Positions 5,538 to 35,358 of a DNA stretch of 35,358 nucleotides are shown here, piece by piece. Each line of letters begins with the position of its first letter. The stretch's first letter is position 1. Below the pieces are notes generated by a model. It was not told the origin of the DNA. It searched no databases and saw only the letters and a list, made by a program, of their open reading frames with translations. The position numbers and the translations under genes were made by a program. Source of the DNA: an uncultured Planctomycetaceae bacterium (lineage in GTDB: Bacteria; Planctomycetota; Planctomycetia; Pirellulales; UBA1268); contig CAXEMW010000002.1 of assembly GCA_963997395.1 (NCBI GenBank), positions 1 to 35,358 of the forward strand. Direction: 5' to 3'.

Positions 5538-5598
5538 CGTTTCACAGTGATCGATTCGCCGTTATTGCATGTGAGCGAATGCTGTTCAAGAAACATCA

Positions 5599-15596: not shown

Positions 15597-16466
15597 TTAC
15601 CCTTCCGGAATATCCTGTATGACTTTTTGAACCCATTTCCTTACACGATCACGATAGCTACTTGGGCGGTGCATCCATAAATCAGTGTGTGCATGCAGGT
15701 AAGGGCCCTCTGGGATATTGAATATGCTGTCTACTGGAACATCAAGGAACGTAAAGTCAGCAAGCTCAAGGTATTCAGCAAGGAAGTCTTTGCGAACTGC
15801 TGTTGCACGCTGCCCACATACAAGGACAGGTCTTCCTTGTAATCGTGAGAGACGGTGAAGAGCCGATTGGCGGTCACTGTGTGGGTATGGCCATTTTCTC
15901 ACGCCATCAAAATGATCGTGAGTGACGACAGCCTTCCAGAGCCCTGCAATTTCATCGTCAGCAAGCCCGATATAACTCGTTGCAATTGCACCACGAGAGA
16001 ATCCACAGATCAGCAGGTTGTCGATATCACCGCCAAACTCTTTACAGATTCGACCAATATTTTGTTTGCAGTATTGAACAGTTGCCTCCCGGTTGCCCCA
16101 CCATGTAACAGCATTGTGGTTGTTATCCATGGCGATATAGGGCATGACAATCCAGATAAACTGAGTGCCACCGCTGATACCATAGCCAAGGTTGGCGTCA
16201 CGTACCTCACCACTTCCGTTTCCTGGTGGAAATTTATTGCCGGTGTATTCAACCAGAACAGGGTATTTGTCTCCGGGCACCCAGTTTTGTGGGAGATAGA
16301 GTGAGTGATAAACATCCGTGCCATGATACTCAGGTGCTTGTTGCCAGACTCGTTTGCCTGCTGCTGGTGCCTCATGAGTCATTGGCGGTGTTACAAGATC
16401 GGAGGCGGCACCAATTTCTATAACAAGAGCGACTGCAGCAAGAAAAAACATGGTTCGCAGGATCAT
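15597..16466 (-). CDS. Exported alpha/beta-hydrolase (esterase-like)
   Basis: The ATG at 16466 gives signal peptide MILRTMFFLAAVALVIEIGAA; the ORF-track start at 16481 is TTG. The nucleophile elbow is LLICGFSRGAIAT (G-x-S-x-G). The overall layout resembles secreted polymer esterases. Confidence 0.65.
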   Translation of the reverse strand: MILRTMFFLAAVALVIEIGAASDLVTPPMTHEAPAAGKRVWQQAPEYHGTDVYHSLYLPQNWVPGDKYPVLVEYTGNKFPPGNGSGEVRDANLGYGISGGTQFIWIVMPYIAMDNNHNAVTWWGNREATVQYCKQNIGRICKEFGGDIDNLLICGFSRGAIATSYIGLADDEIAGLWKAVVTHDHFDGVRKWPYPHSDRQSALHRLSRLQGRPVLVCGQRATAVRKDFLAEYLELADFTFLDVPVDSIFNIPEGPYLHAHTDLWMHRPSSYRDRVRKWVQKVIQDIPEG

Positions 16467-16641
16467 GTCAGGTTGAGTCAATCAATGAGTGGTCGAGGCT
16501 CCTGACAAGGAGTCTACTGTCCTTTTGACTCCTTTTGAATCGGAAGTACCATCATAGAGCAGGCGTCATTTGTTACGCCCTGCAAGAACAGGTTGAAAAT
16601 CGAGGGAAGTGGTTGTTCTTTTTGACGAGGAAAAGTTTTTT

Positions 16642-17469
16642 ATGGGTGCTCAAAAACAGCGTCGGTCAATGGCAGAAAAAGCAGATAAGTACAAGTGCTA
16701 TTTGAAGTCAGTTCAGTCTCCTGAGCATGAAGTCGAATTTTTTGATAAAGCATTCAAGGATGAGTTTCATCGTAAGCCAACCACATTGCGTGAAGATTTT
16801 TGTGGCACCTTCTCAGTGTGTTGTGAATGGGTAAAGCTTGGCAGACAACGTACGGCACTCGGTGTCGACCTTGATCCAGAGCCATTGGCATGGGGGGAGA
16901 AACACATTCTTTCAAAGCTGCAATCCGCGCAGGCTTCACGGGTTCGCATCCTTGAAAAAGATGTTCGTGAAAAAACGCGGCCAGGTGCCGACGTTCTAGC
17001 CGCACAAAACTTTTCTTTCTGGCTATTCAAGACTCGCAAAGAATTATTGGAATATTTCCGCGTTGCCAGATCAAACATGAGTCGGCAGAGCGTCATGGTG
17101 ATGGATATGATGGGCGGTGGTGACTGCTATGCAGAAAATACAGTTGAAAAGAAAGTTGTGAAAAAAGGGAAAAAGGGTTTTAGCTATCACTGGAAACAGG
17201 TGCAGTTTAATCCGGTCACACACGAGGCTGATTTCTCAATTTCATTCAAATTCGCTGATGGCAGCAAATTGCAGGATGCCTTTCAATACAACTGGAGATT
17301 CTGGACGATTGCGGAGGTTCGAGAACTCCTCGAAGAAGCCGGTTTCAAGAAGTCATATGTCTACTGGGAAGAAGAAGACGAAGATGGCGAAGATACGGGT
17401 GAGTGGATCAAAGCCGAACAGGCTGAAAGCTATCCGAGTTGGTTGTGCTATATCGTTGCTGTAAAGTAG
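16642..17469 (+). CDS. Class I SAM-dependent methyltransferase-like protein
   Basis: LREDFCGTFSVCCEWVKLGRQRTALGVDLDPEPLAWG looks like a motif I/post-I region. The C-terminus is acidic. ATG 16642 is preferred over the upstream GTG at 16609. Confidence 0.65.
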   Translation: MGAQKQRRSMAEKADKYKCYLKSVQSPEHEVEFFDKAFKDEFHRKPTTLREDFCGTFSVCCEWVKLGRQRTALGVDLDPEPLAWGEKHILSKLQSAQASRVRILEKDVREKTRPGADVLAAQNFSFWLFKTRKELLEYFRVARSNMSRQSVMVMDMMGGGDCYAENTVEKKVVKKGKKGFSYHWKQVQFNPVTHEADFSISFKFADGSKLQDAFQYNWRFWTIAEVRELLEEAGFKKSYVYWEEEDEDGEDTGEWIKAEQAESYPSWLCYIVAVK

Positions 17470-20126: not shown

Positions 20127-20888
20127 GTGCGTTTAGTCTGTTACATGATGACGGTATTGATCACCTGTTGTTCTGTAGGGACAAGACAGGTTGATGCGGA
20201 GCAGCCGTACATTGTTTTCCTGATAGCGGAGAAAGAGTATCAAACAGAAAAGACTCTGCCAGATTTTTGTGAGCAGTATGTTCATCACGGAAGGGCAAGC
20301 TTTGTCTACGCAGATCCACATGAACCCAACAAATTGATTGGTAGTGAGGCAGTTGATACGGCAGATCTCTTGTTTGTGAGTGTTCGTCGAAGGACATTGC
20401 CACCACAACAACTCAATAGAATTCGTCGGTATGTCCAATCTGGTAAGCCAGTCATTGGTATACGTACGGCGAGCCATGCCTTCTGTTTACGGAAGCAAGA
20501 GCCAGAAGATGGCTTTGCTGCATGGCCAGAATTCGACAAAACGGTGTTTGGTGGAAACTACACCAACCATTACAAGAACTCACTCATCGCGATGATCCAG
20601 AGAGTGAATCCATCCTCTACCTTGGCAGAATCTCTCTTGTCTGGAATAAAAGAACTTCCATGTGCTTCGGGTGGCTCGTTGTATTGTGTTTCACCGCTTG
20701 AAGAAAAGGCAGACGTTGTTTTGGAAGGTGTTGTTGAAGGGCATGCCCCCGAACCTGTCGCCTGGACTTTTCGTCGTGCTGATGGAGGCAAGTCGTTCTA
20801 TACATCGCTCGGACATATCGATGACTTTCGTGGGCCGATTCTTCCGCCTCTTTTATTGAATGCGATTGAGTGGTGTCTCCATGAATGA
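20127..20888 (+). CDS. ThuA-like (type 1 glutamine amidotransferase-like fold) domain protein, exported
   Basis: It has a GTG start with GAGGA upstream and a signal-like N-terminus. The C-terminal block GGKSFYTSLGHIDDFRGPILPPLLLNAIEWC resembles ThuA-family proteins. Confidence 0.65.
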   Translation: MRLVCYMMTVLITCCSVGTRQVDAEQPYIVFLIAEKEYQTEKTLPDFCEQYVHHGRASFVYADPHEPNKLIGSEAVDTADLLFVSVRRRTLPPQQLNRIRRYVQSGKPVIGIRTASHAFCLRKQEPEDGFAAWPEFDKTVFGGNYTNHYKNSLIAMIQRVNPSSTLAESLLSGIKELPCASGGSLYCVSPLEEKADVVLEGVVEGHAPEPVAWTFRRADGGKSFYTSLGHIDDFRGPILPPLLLNAIEWCLHE

Positions 20889-22125
20889 GTTGTATTTGTA
20901 TCAAGTGATAGTTTTTTGCTTCCTATTTTTCTCTCATTGCTGTTCACCAGTTTTTGGTGCGCCGCATGTCGAGTGGATAACGGGTTGGGGAACGGAACAC
21001 GAAGATCATGTTTTTGAGGGTGTCCATGTACAAGCAGGGGGTTTTTGTGTGGTCGGAAAATGTGGTGAGCCAGATTCGTCAACGGCAAATGGATTTGTGA
21101 TGAAAGTTGATGCCAATGGGGAACAAGAGTGGCTGACAGTACTGGGCAAGCAAAGCTTTCATGATGAAGCACGCTGTGTTGTTGAAGTGCACGACGGTTT
21201 TATCGTTGGTGGAACAATGGGTATCTCTAAAAGAAGATCAAAAGCGTGTCTTTGGAAGATAAGCCCATCCGGTGAAGTTACATGGAAGAAAGTTCTGGAT
21301 CATAAGAAAAATGGTGCGATTCGGGGACTCGATATTCTTGACTCAGAATCATTTGTTGCCACTGGATATGTCGCGAGTGATGAGATAGGTGTTCCGTTTA
21401 TTTCAGATGAGTCCACCGGCATCCTTCTTGTCTCGAATCAAAGCGGAGACATCGCCTGGCAAAAAGAAATTCCCTTTTCACAGGGTGCGAAGGTTTCGTA
21501 TCAGAAAAAAACGCATGTCATCACGATTTGTGGCACCACTTGGCAGGAATCTTTTGAACATGAACACCAAGATGCTTTCCTTGTTCAGTTTTCACACGAT
21601 GGAGAAAAACTCCATCAGCATCTGTATGGAGGCACTGATATGGAGCAGTGTTTTGACTTCGAGGCGTTACCTGATGGATTTGTTCTTGCTGGACACAAAG
21701 CAAGCCACGAAAGTGGGAATTGGGACGTATGGCTCATGAGAACCGACACTGAGGGAGACCTGCTCTGGGAGCAAACCTATGACCAGTTGTCGAATGGAAC
21801 AAGTAAAAACATTTTTGATGAGTGTTATGGAGTGAAGCAGACATCCGATGGTGGATTCGTGCTTGCCTGCGGGTCTGGGATCGAGCCAGATCACGTTTCC
21901 GACGAAGACTCACCTGACAATCTATGGGCTGCGTGTTTGCTTAAAACTAACGCCATCGGAGAGCCCCTCTGGACGTATGTGTTTCACCAACCGGAAAGCG
22001 GGCACAATGCCTGCGAATGGGTTATACCGCACGGTGATGGGCAGTACCTGATGCTTCTTGATAGTGATCACCTCGGTGAGGCAGAACCATCGAATGTTGG
22101 ATTGGTTTACGTGTCCGACAATTAA
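20881..22125 (+). CDS. Hypothetical exported repeat protein, probable beta-propeller
   Basis: ATG 20881 overlaps the upstream stop (ATGAATGA). The signal peptide is MNELYLYQVIVFCFLFFSHCCSPVFGA. It has six full units plus one partial unit of about 47-56 aa, with the pattern ..DGGF[VI][LV].G........(W/F)L.K.d..G...W. Confidence 0.6.
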   Translation: MNELYLYQVIVFCFLFFSHCCSPVFGAPHVEWITGWGTEHEDHVFEGVHVQAGGFCVVGKCGEPDSSTANGFVMKVDANGEQEWLTVLGKQSFHDEARCVVEVHDGFIVGGTMGISKRRSKACLWKISPSGEVTWKKVLDHKKNGAIRGLDILDSESFVATGYVASDEIGVPFISDESTGILLVSNQSGDIAWQKEIPFSQGAKVSYQKKTHVITICGTTWQESFEHEHQDAFLVQFSHDGEKLHQHLYGGTDMEQCFDFEALPDGFVLAGHKASHESGNWDVWLMRTDTEGDLLWEQTYDQLSNGTSKNIFDECYGVKQTSDGGFVLACGSGIEPDHVSDEDSPDNLWAACLLKTNAIGEPLWTYVFHQPESGHNACEWVIPHGDGQYLMLLDSDHLGEAEPSNVGLVYVSDN

Positions 22126-23587: not shown

Positions 23588-24727
23588 TCATTCACCCGTT
23601 CGTGGTGTCTGTGATTCTCGGTATTTATTGAGTTCTTGTACGGTGTCATGCAAACCAGGTCGGCTTAAGAGCCCATCTGCAAAGAATCCTTGCTTCACTC
23701 CTGATTTGCCAAATCCCTTTGGTGTGTCGACTGGGTTGCACCAGAACACACCAAGTATGTAGCTCGTGTTGAGGGCAGCTTTTATATATTCAGCGTAGGC
23801 TTTTCCGGCAGCCACAGAATCCTCGGCAAGTTTCCATGCAGAAATATTCTTGTCACCATCCTGAAATCGGATGGCAAAGTCACATAAGAGGATTGGCTTG
23901 CCAGTACATCGATGAATTTCATCAAGCTTCTGTTGCGGAAATGATTCCATGAAGTACGGCTGCACGGCTATGGCATCCACATATGGAAGCATTTCCTCGA
24001 CGATAGCAGGATTGAATGTTTGGAATGAAAAACGATCGCCAAAGATCAGATGATCGGGGTCGTACGTTCTGTTCGCTGTGCCAACGATACGAAAGTATTC
24101 GCGTGCGATGAAACGAAGAAAGGCTTCGTCCTGTGATGTGGTTCCACCATCTTTCCATGCCTTTATAAATTCTTGGTGCGCCTGTTTTCCAGGTGCATCT
24201 GGAGGGAGTGACTTCATAAAATCAACCCAGTTGTTGCCGGTCGAATTGTCGAGAGGCCAGGCGCCGAGGTCAGTCCAACAATAGCCAATAACGTTTTCAG
24301 GATTTTGAAGGCTCTTTTCGCAACTAGCCTTCACTTCAACCTCGAGTCGCTTGTGTTCTTCTGGATCAAAAATATCAATGAAATGAAAGCTTCCGGCATC
24401 TCGATAGGTCGAAATAGGAACAAGATGGTTCCAGCTTTCAACGTAGGGCATGTCACCCCGCAGCTGAGGAGGACAGCCGTATCCATAGGCATTGAAACCA
24501 AGCCGCTTACAGGCAGTGGAAAACTCTGTGAAATCAAACGCATTGCGGTTGTTGCTGGCATGTGTAATGCCATGAGCAAAGAATGGATTGCCATGAGAGT
24601 CCACCAGCCAATCTCGACCATCAATTGTGGCAAGACTGATGGGTTTTGATGGCGGCGACCCTGCTCGAATGGAATCTGCACAATTGCAAATCAAGATAAA
24701 GCTTACGAGTGAAAAGAGAAATTTCAT
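23588..24727 (-). CDS. Hypothetical exported protein, possibly TIM-barrel glycoside-hydrolase-like
   Basis: ATG 24727 gives signal peptide MKFLFSLVSFILICNCADS; the ORF-track start at 24745 is GTG. The function guess rests only on weak GH-A-like features (GNPFFAHGITH, IGYCWTDLGAWP, PILLCDFA). Confidence 0.55.
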   Translation of the reverse strand: MKFLFSLVSFILICNCADSIRAGSPPSKPISLATIDGRDWLVDSHGNPFFAHGITHASNNRNAFDFTEFSTACKRLGFNAYGYGCPPQLRGDMPYVESWNHLVPISTYRDAGSFHFIDIFDPEEHKRLEVEVKASCEKSLQNPENVIGYCWTDLGAWPLDNSTGNNWVDFMKSLPPDAPGKQAHQEFIKAWKDGGTTSQDEAFLRFIAREYFRIVGTANRTYDPDHLIFGDRFSFQTFNPAIVEEMLPYVDAIAVQPYFMESFPQQKLDEIHRCTGKPILLCDFAIRFQDGDKNISAWKLAEDSVAAGKAYAEYIKAALNTSYILGVFWCNPVDTPKGFGKSGVKQGFFADGLLSRPGLHDTVQELNKYRESQTPRTGE

Positions 24728-24864
24728 AATACAAATCAATGGCACCGAAGGGACTGACGTTGTTTTCTACAAACCGTGTTACTGTTTCATGCGTTCAAGT
24801 AACAACAAATTGGTATTTGTGTGAACAAGAAACCGTTCGAGCTTCTCGCACTACCCAAGATACA

Positions 24865-26127
24865 CTAAATATCGAGTGTCCCGGTACTTGATCCAAATTG
24901 ATCGGACTCAATGCCCATTGATTGAAGAAGGGATACAAACAGGTTGCACAGTGGGACATTGTCTTTTTTGTTGTGCTGAATAAACCTGCCGTGATTGTGC
25001 TTCCCACCGGCCAGAATGATCGGAAGGTTTCTGGGGTCGTGAGCATTTGCATTTCCGAGGTTGCTGCCAAAGAGAACTGAGGTCTGTTCGAGTAAACCCG
25101 ATCCATTTTCAGATGGCTGTTTCAAGCCATCAAGGAAATCACTCAAGCACGTAAGGATTTCCATTTCAATAATCTTGAGTTGTGCGATTCTCTCCGGGTC
25201 TTGTCCATGGTGAGAAAGAGGGTGATGGCCATCGGACACACCGTCAATATTTGGAGTGCCATGGTCACTCTGAATAACAACTGATATCACGCGTGATGAA
25301 TCTGTCTGGAGAATAAGTGGAATGAGGTTGAGGAGCGACCGAACACGACCAACTAGATCAGACGGGTCGGCAATATTTTCCGGAGGTGCAGTCTGAACAC
25401 TGGGTTTCGGTCGATCGAGCCATACTTCGGAATTATTTAATTCTGTTTCAGCAACCCGAATGGAGTCAAAATATTGTTCAAGTTGACGTTTATCGGCGCT
25501 ATGTGTTGTGCGTTCTACTGATTGTATCTGCTCAATTACACTATCGAGAATGCTATGGCCATCTGCGAGGCGTTGTCTCTGTTGTCTGATTTCTTTTTGA
25601 CTTCCACGTAAGAATAATTTTGCATACACCTGAGACGGCATATCATCAGCAGGAATCATCACACCGTTTCTTGTGAAAGACTGACTTTTCTTTCTGTTAC
25701 TACTCAGTGAGACAGATGGGTATCTTGTCACATTTCCAATTTTCTCGGCAGCAAACTGATCAATTGAAATCGTGTTTCGAAAACCTCCGAGGCCGGGGTT
25801 TCTTGCAGATGTCAGAAAGGTCATCTCGGTGTCGTGAGGATCTTTCCCTACCTGGTCTGGATGTGACAGACCGGCGAATAGCGTGAACTCTTTGCGATGG
25901 CGTTGAAGAATGTCTAGGTATTCGGTGCTTTCATAACCGGAGCCTGGTCTCTGAGGAAACAGAGACGGTGCATGGAGGCCAAGCGTGTTGCAGATACACA
26001 CCATTCGCTTGGGTGGCGTCATCTGACTGCCGCCGACTGCTATGCTCATGGATTCAAGAAGAGGCAAGGCAACTGTAATTCCAGAAGCTTTTAGTGCTGT
26101 GCGTCGTGAGAGCGGTGTGTGCATCAT
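24865..26127 (-). CDS. DUF1552 (HXXSHH) domain protein with a twin-arginine signal
   Basis: The N-terminus MMHTPLSRRTALKASGITVALPLLESM fits S-R-R-x-x-L-K. The internal GHHPLSHHG contains the H-x-x-S-H-H signature. The start overlaps the upstream stop as ATGA (26124-26127). Confidence 0.9.
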   Translation of the reverse strand: MMHTPLSRRTALKASGITVALPLLESMSIAVGGSQMTPPKRMVCICNTLGLHAPSLFPQRPGSGYESTEYLDILQRHRKEFTLFAGLSHPDQVGKDPHDTEMTFLTSARNPGLGGFRNTISIDQFAAEKIGNVTRYPSVSLSSNRKKSQSFTRNGVMIPADDMPSQVYAKLFLRGSQKEIRQQRQRLADGHSILDSVIEQIQSVERTTHSADKRQLEQYFDSIRVAETELNNSEVWLDRPKPSVQTAPPENIADPSDLVGRVRSLLNLIPLILQTDSSRVISVVIQSDHGTPNIDGVSDGHHPLSHHGQDPERIAQLKIIEMEILTCLSDFLDGLKQPSENGSGLLEQTSVLFGSNLGNANAHDPRNLPIILAGGKHNHGRFIQHNKKDNVPLCNLFVSLLQSMGIESDQFGSSTGTLDI

Positions 26128-28571
26128 CGATTCCTGAACAGGGGACTTGTAACAACGTGGTGGATAAGACTTCGGAGAGGATATCCGTCGCTTTGTGTCG
26201 CAGAAAGAATGCGTTCGACTTCATCACGATCAGAAAATTCAATGTCACCACCCGTCGCGAAAATGATCAATTGTGAGAGAGTATTTCGTGCAATTTGTTT
26301 AGTTGATTCACGAAGTAATTTTCGATAGTCACGAATGTTTTGGAAAACATCGCCCTCGACTGTGACCCCAGACGTGTTTACACGCGGGCCTGAGTTGTAA
26401 CCCACTCGCTTTAACCGTAATCCAGGTTGAAGACTTTGTTTCATATTTTTACCAATGCGATAGTGCTGCCGGTACGTACCAACCGGATCGAAGCCTTCCA
26501 TTGCGAAACCTGGTGGATCGATATGCTGATGACACCTAGCACATGTTTCAACCGACTGATGCTTCAAAAGCATCTGACGAATTGTGGTAGTGCCTCGTGT
26601 ATCTGGTTCAATTGTGGCAATGTCTGGCGGTGGTGGATTCGGTGGAAGACCCAGCACATGCGTAAGGATAAAATTGCCACGTTTGACGGGCGTTGTGACA
26701 CTCCCATTTGCAGTTACTTTTGCAATTGAGGCATGTCCAAGAATACCGCCTCGTGGACTTGATGCGTCCAAGGAGACTCTCCTCATCGTTTCACCGAATA
26801 CGCCTTTGATGTCATAGTGTTCAGCAAGACGGCGGTTCAGGAATGTAAAGTCGGAGTCAATCAGGTTATGGATTGGCAGATTTTCTTTCAGCAGATACGA
26901 GAAAAACTCTCGTGTCTCAGCAAGCATTGCTCGACGTAAGACATCATCATATTCAGGGTACAGTTTTAGATCAGGTGTCGTTGCATCAATCTGATCGAGT
27001 TCGAAACACTGATCGGTAAAATCATGAATAAAAAGTTGACTTTTTTTATCAGCCAAGAGTCGATCGACCTGAGTAGACAGCGTGTTGGATTCAGAAAGCC
27101 TTCCCTCGCTCGCTAATAGAAGTAACTCTTCGTCAGGAGGGCTTCGCCAGAGAAAATATGAAAGTCGAGAGGCAAGCGCATGGTCGGTTAGCTTCGATTT
27201 ATTTTTCTGCAAATCGTTCGTCAGAAAGAGCGTATGTGGAGAAATGAGGATCGCTGTTAATGGAATGCGAGCGCTGGCAATAAACCCACGCCGGGCTTCG
27301 AGGCTCGGGATAGCGAGATTGGCCAGCTCCGTTATTTCTTTCTTAGTGACTGGTCTCCGGAAGGCTCTGGGCGCAAGCGCTGCCACAGCGTCACGAATAT
27401 GTTGGTAATGAGATTTTGTTGTAACGGGTCTGTACGATCTTCTATTTACAGTCCGTTCCCATTCAACACCTGGGAACAGGGATCGTGTTCGGCGTGGAGG
27501 CCACGTAGTTTCCAGCGGACCTTCAACAAGCACCTCATGAACCCGAACGCCCTCTCCTTTGAACTCACTTGCAGGTTGAGAGTTGTAAATGACTTTGCCA
27601 TCAGGTGCCGGTTCAAGTTCATCAGCACTGACATAAAAGTAATCATCTGGCCGGAAATAGTGAATCGTTGAAACAGTTCGCATTTTCTCTGTCACATCCC
27701 ATGCGGCAAAGAGTTCACTACTGCCCTGAATATCATTCTGACGCTTGAGGCTCATGGTTACCGACGAGCGCGGCTGATACGCGGAGCCGGTCACCGTAAT
27801 CCGGTATCGTCCGGGAGTAGAAAATCGTAGGCCGTTTGCATCCGAGCGTAGGTTGTAGTTTTCACCACGGAACATGATGAGATCATCATTGTCTCGGAAG
27901 ACAGTGCCACCGCCACGGCGGACAGGTCGTTCAAACCACATTTGCATATATCGTGAGTTTGCATAATCAAGCTCACGTTTCATGTTTGGTTTTGGGCCTA
28001 ACTCAATTGCTTCATCAAGAGCGGCTTCGGCTGCTTTGAGAAAACCTTTCACGTGGACGTGGGACATTTCCTGATTCGCCGCCACGACATCAAACGCTCC
28101 TGACTCATCTTCTGGTGGGAGATATTTTGCAATCTCACCACCTATGCCCAGAAGATCATGGAGCGTATGTTCGTACTCACGTCGTGACAGCCGCCTTGAG
28201 GGCACTCTTCCATTCTGTTTTCGTGCCTGTTTATTTATTTGTGAAAGTTCTTTTTTAAGTGTCGATAATGCGGCATGCCTCGCCTCATCACTTGGCATGA
28301 AAGAATCTGGTGGAGGCATTTCTCGACGCTGAATACGATCGAATATGAGTACCCATTGCTGGAACGCTTCCGGTGACGTGTCCGGTTTATCGATGGCGTT
28401 CAAGTTCAAATGTGTCTCTGTCTCTGCATCATGACACGAGATACAGGCTGTCTGAACCAGATTTTCAACTGCATGAAAATCATTTTCCGCATGTACACAC
28501 GGCATGTTAGTAGCAAGCAGATACGCCCATGCGACGAAATACTTTCGGAGAAGATATCGAAATAGTCTCAT
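26124..28571 (-). CDS. DUF1587/DUF1592/DUF1595/DUF1588/DUF1585-type protein with two CxxCH motifs
   Basis: 815 aa with a signal peptide. The N-terminal motif is CISCH (28431-28445). The DUF1588-like block is GGILGHASIAKV...TPVKRGNFILTHVLGLPPNPPPPDI. The DUF1585-like C-terminus is CARCHQHIDPPGFAMEGFDPVG. There are ATGA overlaps at both ends. Confidence 0.9.
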   Translation of the reverse strand: MRLFRYLLRKYFVAWAYLLATNMPCVHAENDFHAVENLVQTACISCHDAETETHLNLNAIDKPDTSPEAFQQWVLIFDRIQRREMPPPDSFMPSDEARHAALSTLKKELSQINKQARKQNGRVPSRRLSRREYEHTLHDLLGIGGEIAKYLPPEDESGAFDVVAANQEMSHVHVKGFLKAAEAALDEAIELGPKPNMKRELDYANSRYMQMWFERPVRRGGGTVFRDNDDLIMFRGENYNLRSDANGLRFSTPGRYRITVTGSAYQPRSSVTMSLKRQNDIQGSSELFAAWDVTEKMRTVSTIHYFRPDDYFYVSADELEPAPDGKVIYNSQPASEFKGEGVRVHEVLVEGPLETTWPPRRTRSLFPGVEWERTVNRRSYRPVTTKSHYQHIRDAVAALAPRAFRRPVTKKEITELANLAIPSLEARRGFIASARIPLTAILISPHTLFLTNDLQKNKSKLTDHALASRLSYFLWRSPPDEELLLLASEGRLSESNTLSTQVDRLLADKKSQLFIHDFTDQCFELDQIDATTPDLKLYPEYDDVLRRAMLAETREFFSYLLKENLPIHNLIDSDFTFLNRRLAEHYDIKGVFGETMRRVSLDASSPRGGILGHASIAKVTANGSVTTPVKRGNFILTHVLGLPPNPPPPDIATIEPDTRGTTTIRQMLLKHQSVETCARCHQHIDPPGFAMEGFDPVGTYRQHYRIGKNMKQSLQPGLRLKRVGYNSGPRVNTSGVTVEGDVFQNIRDYRKLLRESTKQIARNTLSQLIIFATGGDIEFSDRDEVERILSATQSDGYPLRSLIHHVVTSPLFRNR

Positions 28572-31078
28572 TGGTTTGTCGCTGGAATAGCCTTTGAGGA
28601 CTCGACAAATGCCAAAAGGTCGAGAATATCTTCAGCTGTAAAGGTATCGAGTAATCCACTCGGCATGCTGGAAACGTCAGCAACCTTTCGTTCCTCAATC
28701 GCTGACTTTTGAATTCGCTCAATGTTCTCCGGTCGAAGCAGGTTCTGTACGATCTCTACATGGTCCGGTGTTTCATTGACCACTAAGCCTGTTAGGAGAC
28801 GACCATCATCAACAAGGATCATCTGTGTTTTAAAATCCTTATGAATCTCTTGAGACGGATTCACAAGCTGCAAGAGAAGCTTGCTGCCCTGAAAGCGTTT
28901 TGAAACTGCTGTTAGGTCCGGGCCGTATTTTGCACCCTTTCCTTCAATCGAATGGCATCGGCTACAGGCTGCCTGTTCGAAAACGTACCGGCCATTGTCG
29001 AGAGATCGATTCTCTAAATGATTTGCCTGTGTAATCAGCTCTCGATAATTCTGCTTCCATTTTTTTACAAACTTTCTGGTTGGAATAGCATCCGGCTCGG
29101 TACTCCCGACGTGTTCTAGAATACGAATAAACATTTGGCCATCACGGCTTCGCTTTGGATTCTGGCGTCGGAACTGTTGCCACAACTTGTTCACCTGTTG
29201 TCGTTGCGATGAACTGAGTTCAGTCATCCGTGCATCAACATATTCTTGATGATTTTTTCCGTGGTAGGCAGCTGGTAATGGAGATTGACCAATTTTTTGA
29301 AACAGGCCCTGATTCGGAGGCCTACGTTTTGGTACCACAGCAAGATTACCCACATCATGATTCCCGTCGTATGTTTTCGCGATGAGCTGCGTGCCACCAT
29401 GTGTTGGCAGCGTGTCAGGTAACGAAATACAGATCACAGCCCCAACGCCTCGTTCCATATGACGGGCTGGTCCAGATGTACTGGTCCAGACTTTTCCGTC
29501 ATCATCAAATTCAATTTCACGTGTGTATGAGACGCGGGTTGGTAAACGGAACTCAACAAGTGTTTCAGTGACGGGGTCAAACCTGTTGATTGTGTCGTTT
29601 CCAGTACCACAGACCCAGACAATGCCGTCCTTATCGATATTTAATGCATACGGAATCTGGTTTTCAGCATCAGGCAATTCGTAGACAGTCCAGCGTTCGG
29701 TCGTGGGATCAAACTTTCCAAATACACCCGATCCAAAGCCAGGAACCCAGACCATGCCATCAGGTGCTACATGAAGCCGACGTGGTCCACGAAAAGGCGG
29801 GTTCCACTCTTTGATCGCGCCATCATCGACCGACGGGTCAATTCGTCCAATCCGGTTGCCATTGAGCTTGGAATACCAGATCATTCCATCGACGGGAGAA
29901 AAATCGATGCCATAGGGGGTAATGCCTCGTGACTCACCACGACCAGCGGCAGTCGCCTGACCAGCATCAAGGAGTTTGTATTCTTTGACGACGTGTGTTG
30001 TTGGATGAATCGAAAAACATGAATTGGAGCCGGCATCGGTGTACCAAATCAATCCTTCAGGATCACTCGGATTTATTCGTAATGTATGTGGGTAATTCCC
30101 ACGTGTCTTTGGTGCCTCCGCACTGCTGTAGGTTTCAAATTGCTCTGTATTGAAATCAAAGCGAACCATCTTGCCACTTGCGCACATGGTCGTCCATAAG
30201 CTTCCATCATTAGCTGTTTCAATTGAATGAGGGCCGTATGCTCCTTTCGGATATTTGTACGTTGTTTGCTCACCCGATTCGGTATCAAGTGCAATCAACT
30301 TTCCATTTTGAATGTTGACCGCATAGACTCTTCCATCACGGCCAAGTTCCAGATCATGAAACGATCCTTGGAGCAGTTCATCCATTTCCCACATTGTGAT
30401 TGTGGCAGCAGCAGCAAGCCCTGTTGGAGCTGGTGGTGGCACAAAAGTTGGCCATTGTTTGACGGCGTCTCCTTTGTACGTTTCCATCAGTCGAGGAATG
30501 ATGGTTTCTTTTGTATGTGGAAACAGCCCACCGAATCCATCCATCCGTCGCAGCATGGTCTCCCAGTCAACAGGCTCTTCTGGAGTTCGAAAACCCACGG
30601 TTCCAACTTGATGGCAGTAGGAACACATCATTTTGAAATTGAGCTTGGCATGTGAATCCTCAAAATCCAACATGCTGAAGGCACTGTTTGCCGGTCGCTG
30701 TAATTCGAGCTCTTCACCAACTGCTGGGCGTGTCTGGATGTGAAGATTATCTGTGTTCGCAGACACGCTGCTCAGCCAGGTATCTGCGAGCCCCATGAGG
30801 CGAGTACGGAGCCGATACGTACAGTCTCTAAGCCCATCAATAGTGAAAGAGCCATCTGGTTTGGTGAATACAGATGTCCATTTTCGATGCTCAGTGTCAA
30901 TTGCTGAAACCATGACACCTCCAACGGGCATGTTCTTTTCATTGACGACAGTCCCTTGAATCGTTGCTGCTTGGCTGAAAGCGCAACTGAGCAGTACTGT
31001 AAGACTAGAGCACAATAGAACCACACTTTTTTTCATGGCATCTTTCCCACCAAGGCAAAAAACTTGTTTGGTTTTCAT
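28568..31078 (-). CDS. Multidomain exported protein: CarboxypepD_reg-like domain, CxxCH site, Vgb/NHL-like beta-propeller, 64-aa shared module, Pirellula-type C-terminal haem-binding domain
   Basis: GAGAGGA lies upstream of ATG 31078, with an alternative ATG at 31036. The N-terminal domain reads IQGTVVNEKNMPVGGVMVSAIDTE...DGSFTIDGL, followed by CSYCHQ. Propeller blades include GMIWYSKLNGNRIGRIDP, GMVWVPGFGSGVFGKFDP and GIVWVCGTGNDTINRFDP. The C-terminus reads CSRCHSIEGKGAKYGPDLT...SSMPSGLLDTFTAEDILDLLAFVES. Confidence 0.85.
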   Translation of the reverse strand: MKTKQVFCLGGKDAMKKSVVLLCSSLTVLLSCAFSQAATIQGTVVNEKNMPVGGVMVSAIDTEHRKWTSVFTKPDGSFTIDGLRDCTYRLRTRLMGLADTWLSSVSANTDNLHIQTRPAVGEELELQRPANSAFSMLDFEDSHAKLNFKMMCSYCHQVGTVGFRTPEEPVDWETMLRRMDGFGGLFPHTKETIIPRLMETYKGDAVKQWPTFVPPPAPTGLAAAATITMWEMDELLQGSFHDLELGRDGRVYAVNIQNGKLIALDTESGEQTTYKYPKGAYGPHSIETANDGSLWTTMCASGKMVRFDFNTEQFETYSSAEAPKTRGNYPHTLRINPSDPEGLIWYTDAGSNSCFSIHPTTHVVKEYKLLDAGQATAAGRGESRGITPYGIDFSPVDGMIWYSKLNGNRIGRIDPSVDDGAIKEWNPPFRGPRRLHVAPDGMVWVPGFGSGVFGKFDPTTERWTVYELPDAENQIPYALNIDKDGIVWVCGTGNDTINRFDPVTETLVEFRLPTRVSYTREIEFDDDGKVWTSTSGPARHMERGVGAVICISLPDTLPTHGGTQLIAKTYDGNHDVGNLAVVPKRRPPNQGLFQKIGQSPLPAAYHGKNHQEYVDARMTELSSSQRQQVNKLWQQFRRQNPKRSRDGQMFIRILEHVGSTEPDAIPTRKFVKKWKQNYRELITQANHLENRSLDNGRYVFEQAACSRCHSIEGKGAKYGPDLTAVSKRFQGSKLLLQLVNPSQEIHKDFKTQMILVDDGRLLTGLVVNETPDHVEIVQNLLRPENIERIQKSAIEERKVADVSSMPSGLLDTFTAEDILDLLAFVESSKAIPATNQ

Positions 31079-31106
31079 AGTATCCTCTCACAATCAGATA
31101 GTTCAC

Positions 31107-34100
31107 TTAGTTGTTTTTGGTTTCACCAATGCAGTACAGATACTGCCGGCCCCGCAAATAAAGGCAGTCGCCTACTGGTACAGGTGAGGCATTGAATTCA
31201 TCATCAAGCGTGTTCGTAGCAACAACATTCAATTCATTTGTGTGTTTGAGTACGACGATAGAACCAGTTCGGCCGGCAAAATAAACATGGCCGTTGGCAC
31301 CAACAGGAGACGCATAGATATTTTGAATATCAGGCAGGCGTGTTCGTTCGATGATTGCTTCACCAGTGGTGACATTCAAAGCAGTAAGAATTCCCTTGTT
31401 GGATTGAGTGAAATACAACTGGTCATCAAATAGGAGTGGAGATGGAATGTATGGAGTTCCTTTGTCCCCTGACCAAACAACTGCAGAACTTCCAGAAACA
31501 TCACCCTTCGAATCGAGTTTTAAAGCCATGACAGAGTGGCCCTCATAGCCGCTCATGCAGATGACCATGTCGTTATAGATGACTGGTGAAGGCGTAACGT
31601 TGCCGGTCAATCCACTGCATTGCCAAATGACCTCTCCGGTATCAAGGTCGTAGCTGCGAATGAAATTTGAAGCTGCTGTGATAACCTGCGTTCGTTCACC
31701 ATCTTTTGTAAAGATTTGAGGTGTTGCCCATGCGTTTTTCTCATCGCGAGTACGTTTCCAGACGGTTTGACCGGTGGCAGCTTCAAGGACCTCTATCGAT
31801 GATTGGCCAGAATGATCACGGACGATAATAATTCGTCCATGATGAAGGACAGGAGAGCATCCTTCACCGAGGCTGGCTCCGACGCGAACTTCTCCAAGGT
31901 CCCGTTTCCAGAGCAATGTTCCATCAAGGCTGTAGCAGTACATTCCTGCAGAACCAAACCAGCAGTACAGTCGCTCTCCATCAGTCACCGGTGATGCACA
32001 GGCAAAGTCGGCATGGTGATGAGTGCCTTCATGGGGAACTTTTTCAGTTGCAGTTTGTTGCCAGAGTTTTTTTCCAGTGAACCGGTTCAAACAAAGAACT
32101 TCAAACCGAAAAACAGTATTCGGGAATGTGATGCCAAAAACCCGCTCAGGCTGTTCTTCTGGAGGTGGCAGGCTTGGATCAACAACTTTGGTATCAACGG
32201 CTGTCAGAACAAATATCTTGTCATCCCACACAATGGGAGAAGCGTTACCTTGTCCTTCAATCGGTACTTTCCAGCGGATGTTGTTTTCTTCACTCCATGT
32301 GACAGGAGGTGAAGCAGTTGCACTCATGCCAGTGGCTTCTGGCCCTCGCCACTGATGCCAGAAGCGTTCTGTTTTCTCAAGAAAAGCTTTTTGTTCGCGA
32401 GGGAATTGGTAATTGCTGTCTGCAAACGTGTCATTTCTTGTCAGCGTATCTTCACTTTTTTGCTGTTTTCCTGATGACTGGACGTAATCCAATATTTTGA
32501 CAAAGAGCTGTCCTTTATTGACACCCTCATTCTGTTCGGTGCTGGCCTTTTTCCAAAGTTCTCCCAGACGTGTTCGTTGCTTCGGTGACAATTTTTTCAT
32601 TCGTTCATCAACGTAGGATTGATGATTTGAGCCACGGTAGCCACGAGGAATCGGGCGTTGCGATATCTTCTTGAGAATGTCTTGAGATGATGATTGAACA
32701 CGCTGACCTTTCTCAGGATTCTGTTTCGCTTTTCCCTGTTTGTTTTCTGTCCCAGTTTGAGCAGACCAGTCAGGTGCATCGGCCATAATATCCTTGTAGA
32801 GCGCCAGCAGCTTTTTCTTGAGACGCTCAGTGACTTTCGGACGTTGCTTTGAGATGTCCTTCTTTTGTTGCGGATCAGTTTTTAAGTCGTACAGTGCGAA
32901 CCGGCTAAACCCGCCTGCCTTGATCGTTGGAATCCACGCTTCCTGGAAAGTCCGTGCACGAACGAACTCACTCTTCAGCCGGTTGTATTCGGGGCTGGAG
33001 AAGGTGGTGTTGGTGACGCGGGAACCCAGGTTGGGCGCCCGCGGATTGATGCCCGCCAATCTGGCCAGCTTCTGCTGCAATTCATTTTTCTTGGCATTAT
33101 TCGCTGGCAATTTGTAATCAGAGTAACCCATCAGCGTGTAATCCCCTTCACGCAAGGTAGCGAGATGACCCGATGACGGTGAAAGCCACAACAGGGGTTG
33201 CGATCGATTCAAGTCACCTTTCTCGATGAGCAACGGTGAAAGGTCAGCGCCATCAAGGTGCACGCCTTTGGGTTTATCGATACCGGTCAGGCCGCAAATC
33301 GTTGGCAGTAAATCAACCGAGCCTGAAGGTGTGTCTTCAGTACGACCGCCTCGAAAACCATTCGGCCAGAAGAAAATACCAGGAGAGCGTAATCCACCTT
33401 CAAATTTCGATCCTTTGGCACCAGTCAATCCACCATTTCGATCAGCCCGATAACTTCCGTGGTCTGAGGAGTAAATAATTAAGGTGTTGTCCAGCTTGCC
33501 TGTTTCTTTGAGCTTTGCAACGAGTCGTCCAATGGCTCGATCGGTGTTATCGACTGTGGCCGAATAGATTGCGGCTTCATCCTTGAGATCGCCGTAGATC
33601 GAGGTGATCTCATCAGGCGCCGCCAGTTTGGAGTGAGGCTCATTAAACCACATGTTCATGAAGAACGGTTGATCTGGATTCTTCTTCTCGTCTAACCAGC
33701 GGATCGCATCGTCCACGATCAACTGACACGAATAGCCTTTTAGCGGTCCGACTCGTTTGCCGTTGCGCATAAAGTTCGTAGGATCCTTATGGCTTGGGTT
33801 GGCTCCGTTCGAGAGCCCGAACCAGTAGTCAAAACCGTGCTGCTGAAGCGTAGGTTTTTTTCGTTTGCCTGAGGTCATCCCGACGTGCCACTTGCCGAAG
33901 TGGGCCGTTCCATAACCAGCCTGTTGCAACACTTCTGCGATCGTCACTTCGCGTTCCAGCAGATGCATGTCGTGCATGTGATCCTGCAGAACGCTGTAAA
34001 TACCAGTGCGGAGATTCTGCCTTCCGGTAAGGAGAGTCGCCCGCGATGGCGAGCAGACTGCTGCCCCGGCGTGAAAGTCGGTGAACTTGACCCCACGCGC

Positions 34101-34274
34101 TGCCAGGTTGTCGAGCACTGGTGTTTTGACTGGCCCGCCATAACAGCCGAGATCCTTTGATCCAAGATCATCGGCCAGCAGAATGACGACGTTGGGCTTG
34201 GATTGCTTTTCTTCAGCTGAAGCAAACGCAGCGAGCATCGAGAAGCATAAAAAAAATGTGAGGATAGGTTTCAT
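31107..34274 (-). CDS. Fusion protein: N-terminal formylglycine-type sulfatase, 64-aa shared module and C-terminal PQQ-like (BamB-like) beta-propeller
   Basis: ATG 34274 gives signal peptide MKPILTFFLCFSMLAAFASA. Sulfatase blocks are NVVILLADDLGSKDLGCYGG, CSPSRATLLTGR, HFGKWH, SSDHGS and FEGGLRSPGIFFWP. The C-terminal half starts WHQWRGPEATG...IRWKVPIEGQGNASPIVWDDKIFVLTA, typical of planctomycete PQQ-like propeller proteins. Confidence 0.85.
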   Translation of the reverse strand: MKPILTFFLCFSMLAAFASAEEKQSKPNVVILLADDLGSKDLGCYGGPVKTPVLDNLAARGVKFTDFHAGAAVCSPSRATLLTGRQNLRTGIYSVLQDHMHDMHLLEREVTIAEVLQQAGYGTAHFGKWHVGMTSGKRKKPTLQQHGFDYWFGLSNGANPSHKDPTNFMRNGKRVGPLKGYSCQLIVDDAIRWLDEKKNPDQPFFMNMWFNEPHSKLAAPDEITSIYGDLKDEAAIYSATVDNTDRAIGRLVAKLKETGKLDNTLIIYSSDHGSYRADRNGGLTGAKGSKFEGGLRSPGIFFWPNGFRGGRTEDTPSGSVDLLPTICGLTGIDKPKGVHLDGADLSPLLIEKGDLNRSQPLLWLSPSSGHLATLREGDYTLMGYSDYKLPANNAKKNELQQKLARLAGINPRAPNLGSRVTNTTFSSPEYNRLKSEFVRARTFQEAWIPTIKAGGFSRFALYDLKTDPQQKKDISKQRPKVTERLKKKLLALYKDIMADAPDWSAQTGTENKQGKAKQNPEKGQRVQSSSQDILKKISQRPIPRGYRGSNHQSYVDERMKKLSPKQRTRLGELWKKASTEQNEGVNKGQLFVKILDYVQSSGKQQKSEDTLTRNDTFADSNYQFPREQKAFLEKTERFWHQWRGPEATGMSATASPPVTWSEENNIRWKVPIEGQGNASPIVWDDKIFVLTAVDTKVVDPSLPPPEEQPERVFGITFPNTVFRFEVLCLNRFTGKKLWQQTATEKVPHEGTHHHADFACASPVTDGERLYCWFGSAGMYCYSLDGTLLWKRDLGEVRVGASLGEGCSPVLHHGRIIIVRDHSGQSSIEVLEAATGQTVWKRTRDEKNAWATPQIFTKDGERTQVITAASNFIRSYDLDTGEVIWQCSGLTGNVTPSPVIYNDMVICMSGYEGHSVMALKLDSKGDVSGSSAVVWSGDKGTPYIPSPLLFDDQLYFTQSNKGILTALNVTTGEAIIERTRLPDIQNIYASPVGANGHVYFAGRTGSIVVLKHTNELNVVATNTLDDEFNASPVPVGDCLYLRGRQYLYCIGETKNN

Positions 34275-34290
34275 GATATGTGTTCTCTTC

Positions 34291-35358
34291 TTATTTTGTT
34301 TTGGGCTTGCCCGTAGTTTTATTTTCATCTGACGTATGACCTGACGCCGCTGGAATTGCATGCGGTGACAACCAGTCAATTTGAGGCCAGTTCCGTAAGT
34401 CGGTCTTCAGGTGAGGCCCCGGTGTACTGCGTCCTTGCCTGACATATTCACCCGCGAGAGCAGTCAATTCACTGACGACGTCAGGACGTATCTCGATCAG
34501 ATTGGTTGTCTCGTCCGGATCAGTCCGCATGTTGTAGAGCTGGCGGTTCGCAGTGTCGAATGACCTCTGTTCAATCGTTCCGTTGTACCTGCTGCTGCGT
34601 TGCCCGGCTCCGTAACCGTTCCCTCCGGATCCCGCGTGCAACAGTAATTTCCAGTCACCGGTTCGAATCGCAAATCGACCGCTCGATGAGTGGTGAATTA
34701 TTGCATGAGCTTTTCGGTTGTCATCGCCTTTGCCTAGCATCAATGGAAGAATGGAAACACTATCGACCCCCTGATCTGTGGGAAGCTCGACAGACAGAAG
34801 TTCTGAAAATGTTGCCATCATGTCGACAAGACAGAAGGGTGTGTCGCACGTTGAGCCCGGCGCGATCACGCCTGGCCAGCGAGCAATGAATGGAACGCGG
34901 TGTCCGCCTTCCCAGTTGTCGCGTTTGGCTCCCAGGAAGTGAGAGGAGCTGTCGTGACCAAACTTACTCCGGCGTGGATACATGTTGGTCTCAGGTCCGT
35001 TGTCACTGGTCACAATCACCAGGGTGTTGTCTGTGAGTTTCAATCGATCCAACGCATTCATCACCCTTCCTATGTGATGATCCACTTCCACCATGAAATC
35101 GCCGTAGATATCCAATTTGCTTGTACCGACGAAGGCATCACCCGGCGCGTGAGGTGTGTGAGGTGCATTGAGCGGCATGTAAACGAAAAAGGGGCTTTGC
35201 TCGTTGCGTTGGATGAAGGAGATGACTTCGTCGGTCAAGGTCGGCATGACATGCTTATGCCGCCAGCCAGGAACCGCAGGTCCCTGCCGACCACCTTTGT
35301 CTTCTTCCTTCAAACTGGAAGTGGGTTGCTCGGTGACACGGTCATTTCGAATGAAAAC
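34291..35358 (-). CDS. Sulfatase (arylsulfatase family), C-terminal about 355 aa; the 5' end lies outside the window
   Basis: The frame is open to the window edge (VFIRNDRVTEQP...). Blocks present are FVYMPLNAPHTPHAP, VIVTSDNGPE and GAKRDNWEGGHRVPFIARWPG. The stop lies 16 nt before the next gene's start. Confidence 0.85.
   Translation of the reverse strand, partial: VFIRNDRVTEQPTSSLKEEDKGGRQGPAVPGWRHKHVMPTLTDEVISFIQRNEQSPFFVYMPLNAPHTPHAPGDAFVGTSKLDIYGDFMVEVDHHIGRVMNALDRLKLTDNTLVIVTSDNGPETNMYPRRSKFGHDSSSHFLGAKRDNWEGGHRVPFIARWPGVIAPGSTCDTPFCLVDMMATFSELLSVELPTDQGVDSVSILPLMLGKGDDNRKAHAIIHHSSSGRFAIRTGDWKLLLHAGSGGNGYGAGQRSSRYNGTIEQRSFDTANRQLYNMRTDPDETTNLIEIRPDVVSELTALAGEYVRQGRSTPGPHLKTDLRNWPQIDWLSPHAIPAASGHTSDENKTTGKPKTK

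Follow-up and report, generated by a model that had tools for sequence, protein, structure and literature searches.

A conserved planctomycete cluster of sulfatase, predicted c-type haem protein and DUF1592/DUF1552 genes

Planctomycetes and Verrucomicrobia degrade sulfated algal polysaccharides in the ocean, and gene pairs for proteins with domains of unknown function (DUFs) are a signature of these bacteria. One such pair consists of a PSCyt3/PSD protein (the DUF1592 group; PF07631, PF07627, PF07626, PF07624 and PF07637) and a DUF1552 protein (PF07586); it was described by He et al. in 2017, its function is not known (PMC5615132), and a later preprint repeats the association. These pairs occur in the thousands, with at least 6,957 DUF1552 proteins at E ≤ 1e-10 among 8,000 scored candidates. 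The PSCyt1/PSCyt2/PSD1 (DUF1549/DUF1553) and DUF1501 pairs are similar in that a large CxxCH-containing, planctomycete-specific protein is encoded beside a partner exported by twin-arginine translocation (Tat), and unlike in belonging to other Pfam families (PMC5615132, PMC2754498). Here, we analyse a stretch of 35,358 nucleotides from an uncultured Planctomycetaceae bacterium (assembly GCA_963997395.1, contig CAXEMW010000002.1, positions 1 to 35,358; 'the window' throughout), which encodes no DUF1501, DUF1549 or DUF1553 protein and in which two genes, g3 and g2, are full members of the PSCyt3/PSD-DUF1552 group, with the large putative haem protein directly upstream of, and overlapping, the Tat-signal partner. 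In contrast to the sampled paralogous pairs, the orthologue group of the window lies in a fixed larger cluster, composed of a sulfatase gene, the haem-propeller gene g4, BamB-like propellers, extracytoplasmic function (ECF) sigma factor, FecR and DUF1559 genes and often a formylglycine-generating enzyme (FGE) gene, and g4 can be fused to the DUF1592 protein (in L042; L numbers denote loci of relatives). Four core genes, g5, g4, g3 and g2, behave as one unit in their inheritance and arrangement, with fusions between them in places. We propose, with a probability of roughly 0.5, that their products would form an exported, inducible periplasmic machine for a sulfated substrate, with a four-haem relay to respiration.

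Conservation of the core and its surroundings

The labels g6 to g1 follow the order of transcription of six consecutive minus-strand open reading frames (ORFs) at window positions 23588-35358:

34291-35358, minus strand: g6, C-terminal 355 residues of an S1 sulfatase, truncated at the window end; accessory
31107-34274, minus strand: g5, predicted 1055-residue fusion of an S1 formylglycine sulfatase, a 72-residue module and a BamB-like propeller; core
28568-31078, minus strand: g4, predicted 836-residue exported haem-c propeller protein; core
26124-28571, minus strand: g3, putative 815-residue dihaem PSCyt3/PSD protein (DUF1587/1595/1592/1588/1585); core
24865-26127, minus strand: g2, 420-residue DUF1552/HXXSHH protein, predicted to be Tat-exported; core
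23588-24727 (ATG start) or 23588-24745 (GTG start), minus strand: g1, 379-residue GH50-like protein; lineage-specific accessory

Checked base by base, this layout is the one described in an earlier, sequence-only reading of the window, with gaps of 16 (34275-34290) and 28 nucleotides (31079-31106), ATGA stop/start overlaps at 28568-28571 and 26124-26127, and 137 nucleotides before the ATG of g1. A scan of the train for consensus promoters and terminators found sites no commoner than in shuffled sequence and is uninformative on whether there is a single transcript.

The g4 family comprises more than 120 clusters that are 66-97% identical to g4, some of them labelled Rubripirellula or Planctomycetaceae SH139. 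With g4 as the query, a scan that covered one genome for each GTDB species gave 25 related loci and one irrelevant weak match on a cyanobacterial contig; when all window proteins were mapped onto these loci, the order sulfatase-g4-g3-g2 was found wherever sequence was available. Synteny limited to this genome had been named as a finding that would tell against a unit, and the order recurs in many genera and metagenome-assembled genomes (MAGs): at 55-72% protein identity it is kept in Planctomicrobium, Fuerstiella, Rhodopirellula, Rubripirellula, Stieleria bergensis (a complete genome) and several Pirellulaceae and Planctomycetaceae MAGs, and it is also present in strain SH139 and in one 8.3-Mb genome. 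The conserved core spans two orders, Pirellulales and Planctomycetales, and start/stop overlaps of 1-4 nucleotides are kept in the distant relatives L016, L018, L027 and L028. Gene order is permuted in L035, where the g4 relative is placed after g2. The loci were recovered by pattern scans, which biases them to closer relatives, their ORFs were read from stop to stop, and metagenome contigs are possibly chimeric. A mixed-profile search for DUF1552 homologues yielded only the orthologue group again, with no added diversity. A g4 98% identical to that of the window was also seen on a 3-kb contig (L006, JAAGZL010000428.1) of a MAG labelled 'Gammaproteobacteria bacterium', which is probably mis-binned.

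A reciprocal metagenome scan from g2, using a diverse DUF1552 profile, gave 14 loci from the orthologue group along with 66 paralogous ones (27-33% identity). Neighbours were counted only at loci with at least 5.5 kb of upstream sequence, namely 23 paralogous and 4 orthologous ones. A DUF1592-type gene lies directly upstream of DUF1552 in 19/23 and 4/4 of these, respectively, whereas a g4-like gene is nearby in 0/23 paralogous and 4/4 orthologous loci, and the combined sulfatase and haem-propeller context is therefore specific to this orthologue group. Sulfatases are found within 8 kb in 3/23 and 3/4 loci, and the three paralogous cases are divergent second DUF1592/DUF1552 pairs beside a window-type cluster. 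The earlier suggestion that the DUF pair has a specific enzymatic context thus holds for the orthologues of the window and does not extend to DUF pairs in general.

Planctomycete genomes contain many sulfatases and many DUF pairs (PMC5615132), and g6 and g1 are not conserved neighbours, as would be expected if unrelated exported genes had come together by chance in a sulfatase-rich, gene-dense genome. Chance co-localization is nevertheless exceedingly improbable and, for the four-gene core, effectively refuted by an order kept at 55-72% identity in two orders, by overlapping frames, by three fusions (see below) and by recovery of the same cluster from both the g4 and the g2 search. A functional link between g5, g4, g3 and g2 is supported by these comparisons.

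The six-gene extent given to the unit in the sequence-only reading needs revision at both ends. The four-gene core is conserved, g6 and g1 accompany it only in near-identical relatives, and the cluster reaches further upstream, beyond the window, to ECF sigma, FecR, DUF1559 and FGE genes in relatives. The fuller cluster reads ECF sigma - FecR - DUF1559 - (FGE) - 1-3 S1 sulfatases - g4 - (BamB-like propeller) - g3 - g2 - (BamB-like propeller), with the separate BamB-like propeller genes as frequent extras, between g4 and g3 or after g2. Upstream of the sulfatase, L003, L008, L011, L012 and L016 each encode an ECF sigma factor, an anti-sigma factor of the FecR type and a prepilin-like DUF1559 protein; FecR and DUF1559 stand at the locus end in L002, and ECF and FecR are present in L018. 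The DNA of L002 is 96.5% identical to the window, and its order is FecR, DUF1559, FGE, a 318-residue protein, two sulfatases, g5, g4, g3, g2 and g1. Its FGE gene (L002:1530-2450; PF03781, 1.6e-39), which encodes a lipobox-like LAGC, lies between DUF1559 and the sulfatases; FGE takes the same position in L003, L005, L008, L011 and L012 and was also noted in L043/46/48/50. The 318-residue protein that follows FGE in L002 has a weak PD40 propeller match. In L031-L036 and L109, the cluster has arrays of sulfatase genes beside it. A second DUF1592/DUF1552 pair (about 29-30% identity) is found on the opposite strand just upstream of the cluster (L003:1-954, L005:752-4437, L008:65-2410 and L043/46/48/50), and it is transcribed divergently from ECF-FecR-DUF1559 where these occur (L008 and L043/46/48/50).

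The ECF/FecR pair is the probable switch controlling the cluster, and g3 and g2, with or without g4, could themselves be a periplasmic sensor, which binds the sulfated substrate or product and signals to the FecR-type anti-sigma factor, like the SusC-type transducers in the polysaccharide utilization loci (PULs) of Bacteroidetes. ECF sigma and FecR genes head the cluster in at least 7 genome loci, the second pair in the clade of the window is divergent from the same ECF-FecR genes, and SusC/SusD domains were not found in the window ORFs or the locus proteins scanned, all of which would suit a sensor. On the other hand, ECF/FecR genes lie within 8 kb of only 4/23 paralogous pairs, all of the same cluster type, L027 and L028 have the core with no ECF/FecR within 10 kb upstream, and DUF1552 is predicted to carry enzyme-like invariant polar residues on an alkaline-phosphatase-type fold. 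A sensor is, in our view, quite unlikely.

Domains, haem sites and fusions

Pfam and NCBIfam searches bore out the domain calls made earlier for the train, with g1 left without a match, and the motifs noted then are all present: CSPSR in g5, a total of four CxxCH in g3 and g4, and SRRTALK and HPLSHH in g2. The claim of export signals agrees with predicted N-terminal hydrophobic segments in g1 to g5, which were assessed by eye and by an N-terminal hydrophobicity scan. The mapped features of the core are as follows:

34041-34055, minus strand: CSPSR formylglycine motif of g5 (residue 74)
33279-34196, minus strand: sulfatase domain of g5 (residues 27-332; PF00884, 7e-65, 219.7 bits against a cut-off of 25)
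32472-32687, minus strand: 72-residue module of g5 (residues 530-601)
31110-32357, minus strand: BamB-like 8-bladed propeller of g5 (PQQ_2, 2e-23)
30611-30625, minus strand: first CxxCH of g4 (CSYCH, residue 152), putative haem c site
about 29474-30361, minus strand: Vgb-lyase/SGL-type propeller of g4 (PF24684, 90.3 bits against a cut-off of 50)
29099-29314, minus strand: 72-residue module of g4 (residues 589-660), 40% identical to that of g5 (E 7e-16)
28598-28999, minus strand: class I cytochrome c domain of g4 (residues 694-827; TIGR02603, 103 bits against a cut-off of 68)
28952-28966, minus strand: second CxxCH of g4 (CSRCH, residue 705), putative haem c site
28431-28445, minus strand: CISCH of g3 (residue 43), putative haem site
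28311-28319, minus strand: MPP of g3, Met-Pro-Pro distal-ligand motif
26529-26543, minus strand: CARCH of g3 (residue 677), putative haem site
26089-26109, minus strand: SRRTALK Tat motif of g2 (residues 7-13), with an invariant RR
25207-25224, minus strand: HPLSHH of g2 (residue 302), HxxSHH motif

CxxCH is found in 0/23 of the other ORFs translated from the window, and about 0.005 occurrences are expected per 800 residues. In g3, PSD3, PSD5, PSD4, PSCyt3 and PSD2 all score above the Pfam gathering thresholds. An alignment of 20 sequences, with paralogues of 26-33% identity among them, shows no variation at C43, C46, H47, M85, P86, C677, C680 and H681. When the PDB was searched by sequence and by profile, g3 had only weak class I cytochrome c matches, to its N-terminal haem region, and no solved relative for the rest. 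The g4 protein consists, by Pfam, of a CarboxypepD_reg beta-sandwich, a Vgb_lyase/SGL-type propeller and a Cytochrom_C domain, and both of its CxxCH motifs are invariant in orthologues. At its C-terminus, g4 matches 7zs0 (9e-12), an anammox dihaem cytochrome c of known structure, for which haem potentials of about +350 mV are reported (PMC11791136). The propeller resembles Vgb lyase at the family level only. Orthology to the streptogramin lyases was not reached, with 61 bits for the NCBIfam Vgb(A)/Vgb(B) models, whose cut-off is 600. The idea of a lipoprotein anchor on g4 was rejected, the Cys not being conserved.

The sulfatase domain of g5 is closest in the PDB to S1 sulfatases (8e-54 to 1e-50), including GalNAc-6- and carrageenan sulfatases, and its formylglycine motif is followed by LTG (AAVCSPSRATLLTG at residue 74) and kept in the L011 and L012 orthologues. 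Formylglycine formation and sulfate-ester hydrolysis by g5 are plausible, and the FGE co-encoded in relatives favours them. The propeller of g5 matches only PQQ_2 and Beta-prop_ACSF4 in Pfam and only BamB in the PDB (about 1e-6); a pyrroloquinoline quinone (PQQ) dehydrogenase was rejected for it, with BamB as the sole PDB match and no PF01011-type propeller with PQQ/Ca-binding residues. Compared with L003, L005 and L008, the sulfatase head (window 32786-34274) is 57-59% identical, whereas the module and propeller are 92-98% identical, and DNA identity to these relatives breaks near window position 32786. This pattern points to a swap of the sulfatase head and thereby to an exchangeable specificity on a constant module-propeller chassis. 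In L002, a relative otherwise 96-98% identical, the frame of the g5 orthologue is interrupted near residue 390, giving two ORFs (L002:6797-9969), whether by a frameshift, by decay to a pseudogene or by a fault of assembly.

Three independent fusions tie the parts of the cluster together. The first is g5 itself: in L012, L016, L018, L022 and L024 the propeller has a gene of its own, downstream of DUF1552 (56-61% identical to g5 residues 639-1050), with a separate copy also in L027, and g5 is therefore a Rosetta-stone fusion of the first and last genes of the cluster. The second is seen in L011 (4646-8584) and L012 (5594-9532), whose g5 orthologues of about 1300 residues (1313 residues) comprise sulfatase, module and propeller followed by an extra C-terminal CxxCH domain and are thus predicted sulfatase-propeller-cytochrome triple fusions. 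This domain reads ..VGNCA[AG]CHTLP.FTDG.., matches Pfam Cytochrom_C in L012 (2.7e-5) and by eye resembles the di-haem peroxidase/MauG motif, for which no CCP_MauG match was obtained. The third is found in L042 (2989-8001), where the g4 and g3 orthologues share one 1671-residue frame, with a Ser/Gly/Arg-rich linker instead of the g3 signal peptide, on a single contig free of N.

The 72-residue module shared by g4 and g5 has the consensus ..LP.GY....HQ.YVD.RM..L...QR...G.LW....NRG..F.KIL.YV. and no Pfam model covers this stretch in either protein. An exhaustive search found it in 82 representative clusters; sulfatases and 3-keto-disaccharide hydrolases predominate among the longer carriers, which also include PQQ_2-ankyrin proteins, a SASA esterase, and HEAT, CCP_MauG and GFO_IDH proteins. 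It is present in every g4 orthologue and in only some of the upstream sulfatases; our guess is that it might be a docking element.

The g2 protein matches HXXSHH (PF07586) at 8.7e-64 (216.5 bits), and the RR of its Tat motif is invariant in 150 g2 orthologues and in paralogues. Sequence and profile searches of the PDB with g2 gave no match, and an earlier hhalign comparison of g2 with sulfatases, using shallow alignments, was not significant (E 0.11). An AlphaFold2 model built from a 150-sequence alignment reached a predicted local distance difference test score (pLDDT) of 66 and a predicted template modelling (TM) score of 0.71, compared with a pLDDT of only 45 from a 42-orthologue alignment. 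The top 50 Foldseek matches of this model in the PDB all belong to the alkaline-phosphatase superfamily (E 3.9e-5 to 7e-3, TM-score 0.30-0.41) and include LtaS/LtaP, carrageenan and other sulfatases, sulfamidase, phosphonate monoester hydrolase, PbgA and MCR-1. An hhalign comparison of 80 DUF1552 proteins with 40 sulfatases gave a colinear alignment along the entire core (E 3.1e-4, probability 39%), pairing DUF1552 FLT(S/G) with sulfatase LLTG and TSVLFGSNLG with TLIIYSSDHG, such that the sulfatase SDHG motif aligns with GSNLG of g2. The formylglycine position is occupied by His in 67/80 DUF1552 members; the g2 group has Pro-His there (P97/H98 in g2), with no Cys or Ser, in loops of low pLDDT. 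Polar residues that are invariant across the family look like those of an enzyme. With moderate confidence, based on the model and alignments, we assign DUF1552 to an esterase-type fold of the alkaline-phosphatase superfamily that lacks formylglycine and has His at or next to that position. DUF1501 presumably belongs to the alkaline-phosphatase clan of Pfam, which would parallel this fold. A formylglycine sulfatase was ruled out for g2, as neither it nor the DUF1552 paralogue of L060 has a CxPxR/SxPxR motif. The notion of g2 as the Tat-exported catalytic subunit of an electron-transfer module calls for revision, the predicted fold being esterase-type and not a redox fold.

A paralogous DUF1592-type frame of 1192 residues in L060 (1326-4901) begins with an FGE-sulfatase domain (9.4e-47), followed by PSCyt1/PSD3/PSD5/PSD4/PSCyt3/PSD2, and is itself followed by a DUF1552 gene (4919-6199). 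FGE takes two external electrons per turnover and, to our knowledge, its physiological electron donor is not known. The haem proteins might accordingly serve in maturation, exchanging electrons with the co-encoded copper/O2-dependent FGE, or an FGE-like domain, and so activating exported alkaline-phosphatase-superfamily enzymes in an oxidizing periplasm. The in-cluster FGE with its lipobox-like LAGC in two separate lineages, and the L060 fusion with DUF1552 next to it, would fit such a role. It is made improbable by L016, L018, L027 and L028, which have the core with no neighbouring FGE, by the lack of Cys/Ser at the formylglycine position and of CxPxR in DUF1552, and by the absence of a nearby sulfatase from most DUF pairs; in addition, PF03781 includes many non-FGE paralogues.

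A proposed periplasmic machine

In the machine that we favour, the g5, g4, g3 and g2 products would assemble in the periplasm into one inducible complex, whose sulfated substrate most likely comes from algal glycans. Exchangeable sulfatase heads, matured by FGE, would remove sulfate and set specificity; g2, paired with the dihaem protein g3, would add another esterase-type subunit, one that does not use formylglycine; and g4, physically joined to g3 in one lineage, would perform a propeller-catalysed step. The four c-type haems would form a relay to the respiratory chain from an oxidative step, which might act on the desulfated substrate or else on a cofactor or the active site of an enzyme, and the BamB-like propellers and the 72-residue module would be scaffolding or docking elements. 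The proposed coupling of desulfation to electron transfer, already part of the sequence-only reading, is strengthened by the invariant haem sites and by the haem domain fused to the sulfatase-propeller in L011 and L012.

Several points weigh against this proposal, and the redox step is its weakest link. We know of no alkaline-phosphatase-superfamily esterase or formylglycine sulfatase that needs a redox partner, the conserved set contains no PQQ signature and no flavin, molybdenum, iron-sulfur or membrane-bound electron carrier, and the g5-type propellers match BamB and not PQQ dehydrogenases. The C-terminal haem domain of g4 appears dispensable in cis because the L035 orthologue lacks it. The g2 model is moderate (pLDDT 66, TM-score 0.36-0.41, hhalign probability 39%), with a pLDDT below 50 in the PHDT and HxxSHH loops, and co-transcription of the train is read from gene spacing only.

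The same cluster could be a purely hydrolytic scavenging complex, in which the sulfatases and DUF1552 cleave sulfate or phosphate esters for carbon, sulfur or phosphorus and the haems are structural or ligand-binding. Both catalytic-looking proteins fall in the alkaline-phosphatase superfamily, with its hydrolytic and transfer chemistry, the cluster has no conserved gene for a dedicated donor or acceptor of electrons, and the L035 orthologue of g4 does without its cytochrome domain, as hydrolysis would allow. Such a complex leaves no obvious reason for four haem sites and a Met-Pro-Pro that are invariant down to 26% identity, for the independent addition of a haem domain to the sulfatase-propeller in L011 and L012, or for a g4 C-terminus that matches a solved dihaem cytochrome c with reported potentials of about +350 mV (PMC11791136), and we consider it unlikely.

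A broader conjecture builds on the proposed machine. The PSCyt3/PSD-DUF1552 pair might be the catalytic heart of a new type of periplasmic, haem-dependent alkaline-phosphatase-superfamily complex, in which DUF1552 forms a new branch with His in the place of formylglycine, its chemistry or activation needs electrons delivered through the c-type haems of its partner and g4, and heads (sulfatases, 3-keto-disaccharide hydrolases and esterases) are recruited through the 72-residue module; in one version, the haem proteins would be the long-sought physiological electron donors of periplasmic FGE-type oxidases. We regard this as speculative and rather unlikely. If the haems were catalytically required, the cluster would be an unusual case of ester hydrolysis allied with c-type cytochromes in the marine cycles of carbon and sulfur.

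Accessory genes and comparison with known systems

The truncated g6 matches the Pfam Sulfatase model at 5e-27. In L109, which is 99.2% identical to the window, the full g6 encodes a 538-residue S1 sulfatase with a CTPSR formylglycine motif and a signal peptide (MKPILTFSCFLLLTAYASA... and SAVCTPSRYALLTG), with another sulfatase upstream of it. It is present in L025 and L109, and a different sulfatase takes its place in L002, where similarity ends exactly at window position 34302; g6 was therefore rejected as a member of the conserved unit and is a strain-variable member of a sulfatase array. The signal peptides of g5 (window 34218-34274; MKPILTFFLCFSMLAAFASAEE) and g6 (L109:1633-1700; MKPILTFSCFLLLTAYASAEV) are near-identical and the mature sulfatases only about 32% identical, which suggests recombination of the 5' end or duplication within the sulfatase array.

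At the other end, g1 has no Pfam or NCBIfam match and begins with an N-terminal hydrophobic segment. It shows a local, (beta/alpha)8-like match to the GH50 beta-agarase 4bq4 (Aga50D residues 574-706; 6e-10), in which IIGEFHI of Aga50D aligns with LLCDFAI of g1. The Glu of this motif, which we take to be the catalytic nucleophile, is replaced by Asp, and g1 may be a divergent or non-canonical glycosidase. It adjoins g2 only where the relative has a g1 of 82-94% identity (L001-L004 and L007), with an extra 1.4 kb between the two genes in L003, and it was rejected as a member of the conserved unit, being syntenic only in near-identical relatives. The same restriction applies to the DUF3500, ThuA and S8 genes downstream of g1.

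Elsewhere, the window encodes a DUF1559 protein, GH10, an alginate lyase, a GH29 fucosidase, an SGL lactonase, ThuA and DUF3500, and looks like a planctomycete glycan-degradation island; an Rfam scan of the window gave no match. ORFs of 204-421 residues with no Pfam match were noted at these positions:

20860-22125, plus strand: unmatched ORF of 421 residues, which overlaps the ThuA gene by 29 nucleotides and accompanies ThuA and DUF3500 in close relatives
16609-17469, plus strand: unmatched ORF
15597-16481, minus strand: unmatched ORF
11903-12517, plus strand: unmatched ORF
9035-9835, minus strand: unmatched ORF
4509-5537, plus strand: unmatched ORF

Our literature search found no description of a fixed cluster of a sulfatase, g4 and the DUF pair with ECF/FecR/DUF1559/FGE, nor of the fusions, the 72-residue module or the DUF1552 fold, and papers on ECF classification contained nothing specific on this cluster. 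It provides the first specific context for the DUF1592/DUF1552 pair, with a chemistry that we infer, and the orthologue group offers a handle on the pair through its fixed partners, a likely ECF/FecR regulator, fusions that predict contacts, the proposed DUF1552 fold and cultured carriers, among them Stieleria bergensis SV_7m_r (L018), Rubripirellula tenax Poly51, Rhodopirellula bahusiensis and strain SH139.

Beyond the DUF pairs, three known systems invite comparison. The PULs for sulfated glycans of Bacteroidetes are likewise inducible clusters for exported proteins, with S1 sulfatases, GH-like genes and an ECF sigma/FecR-type anti-sigma pair; in contrast to these, the planctomycete cluster encodes putative haem-c proteins, a predicted Tat-exported alkaline-phosphatase-like protein, BamB-like propellers and a DUF1559 prepilin-like protein. 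Quinohaemoprotein dehydrogenases share with g4, and with the g5 orthologues of L011 and L012, a periplasmic propeller followed by a class I cytochrome c domain, whereas the propeller of g4 is of the Vgb-lyase/SGL type and that of g5 is a PQQ_2/BamB propeller of about 415 residues with no PQQ-dehydrogenase match in the PDB. Finally, g6 and the N-terminal domain of g5 are ordinary members of the S1 sulfatases, with PF00884, CSPSR/CTPSR-LTG and an SDHG-type motif, and what sets g5 apart from them is its fusion to the 72-residue module and a BamB-like propeller, with a haem domain in addition in L011 and L012, and a head that is swapped among close relatives.

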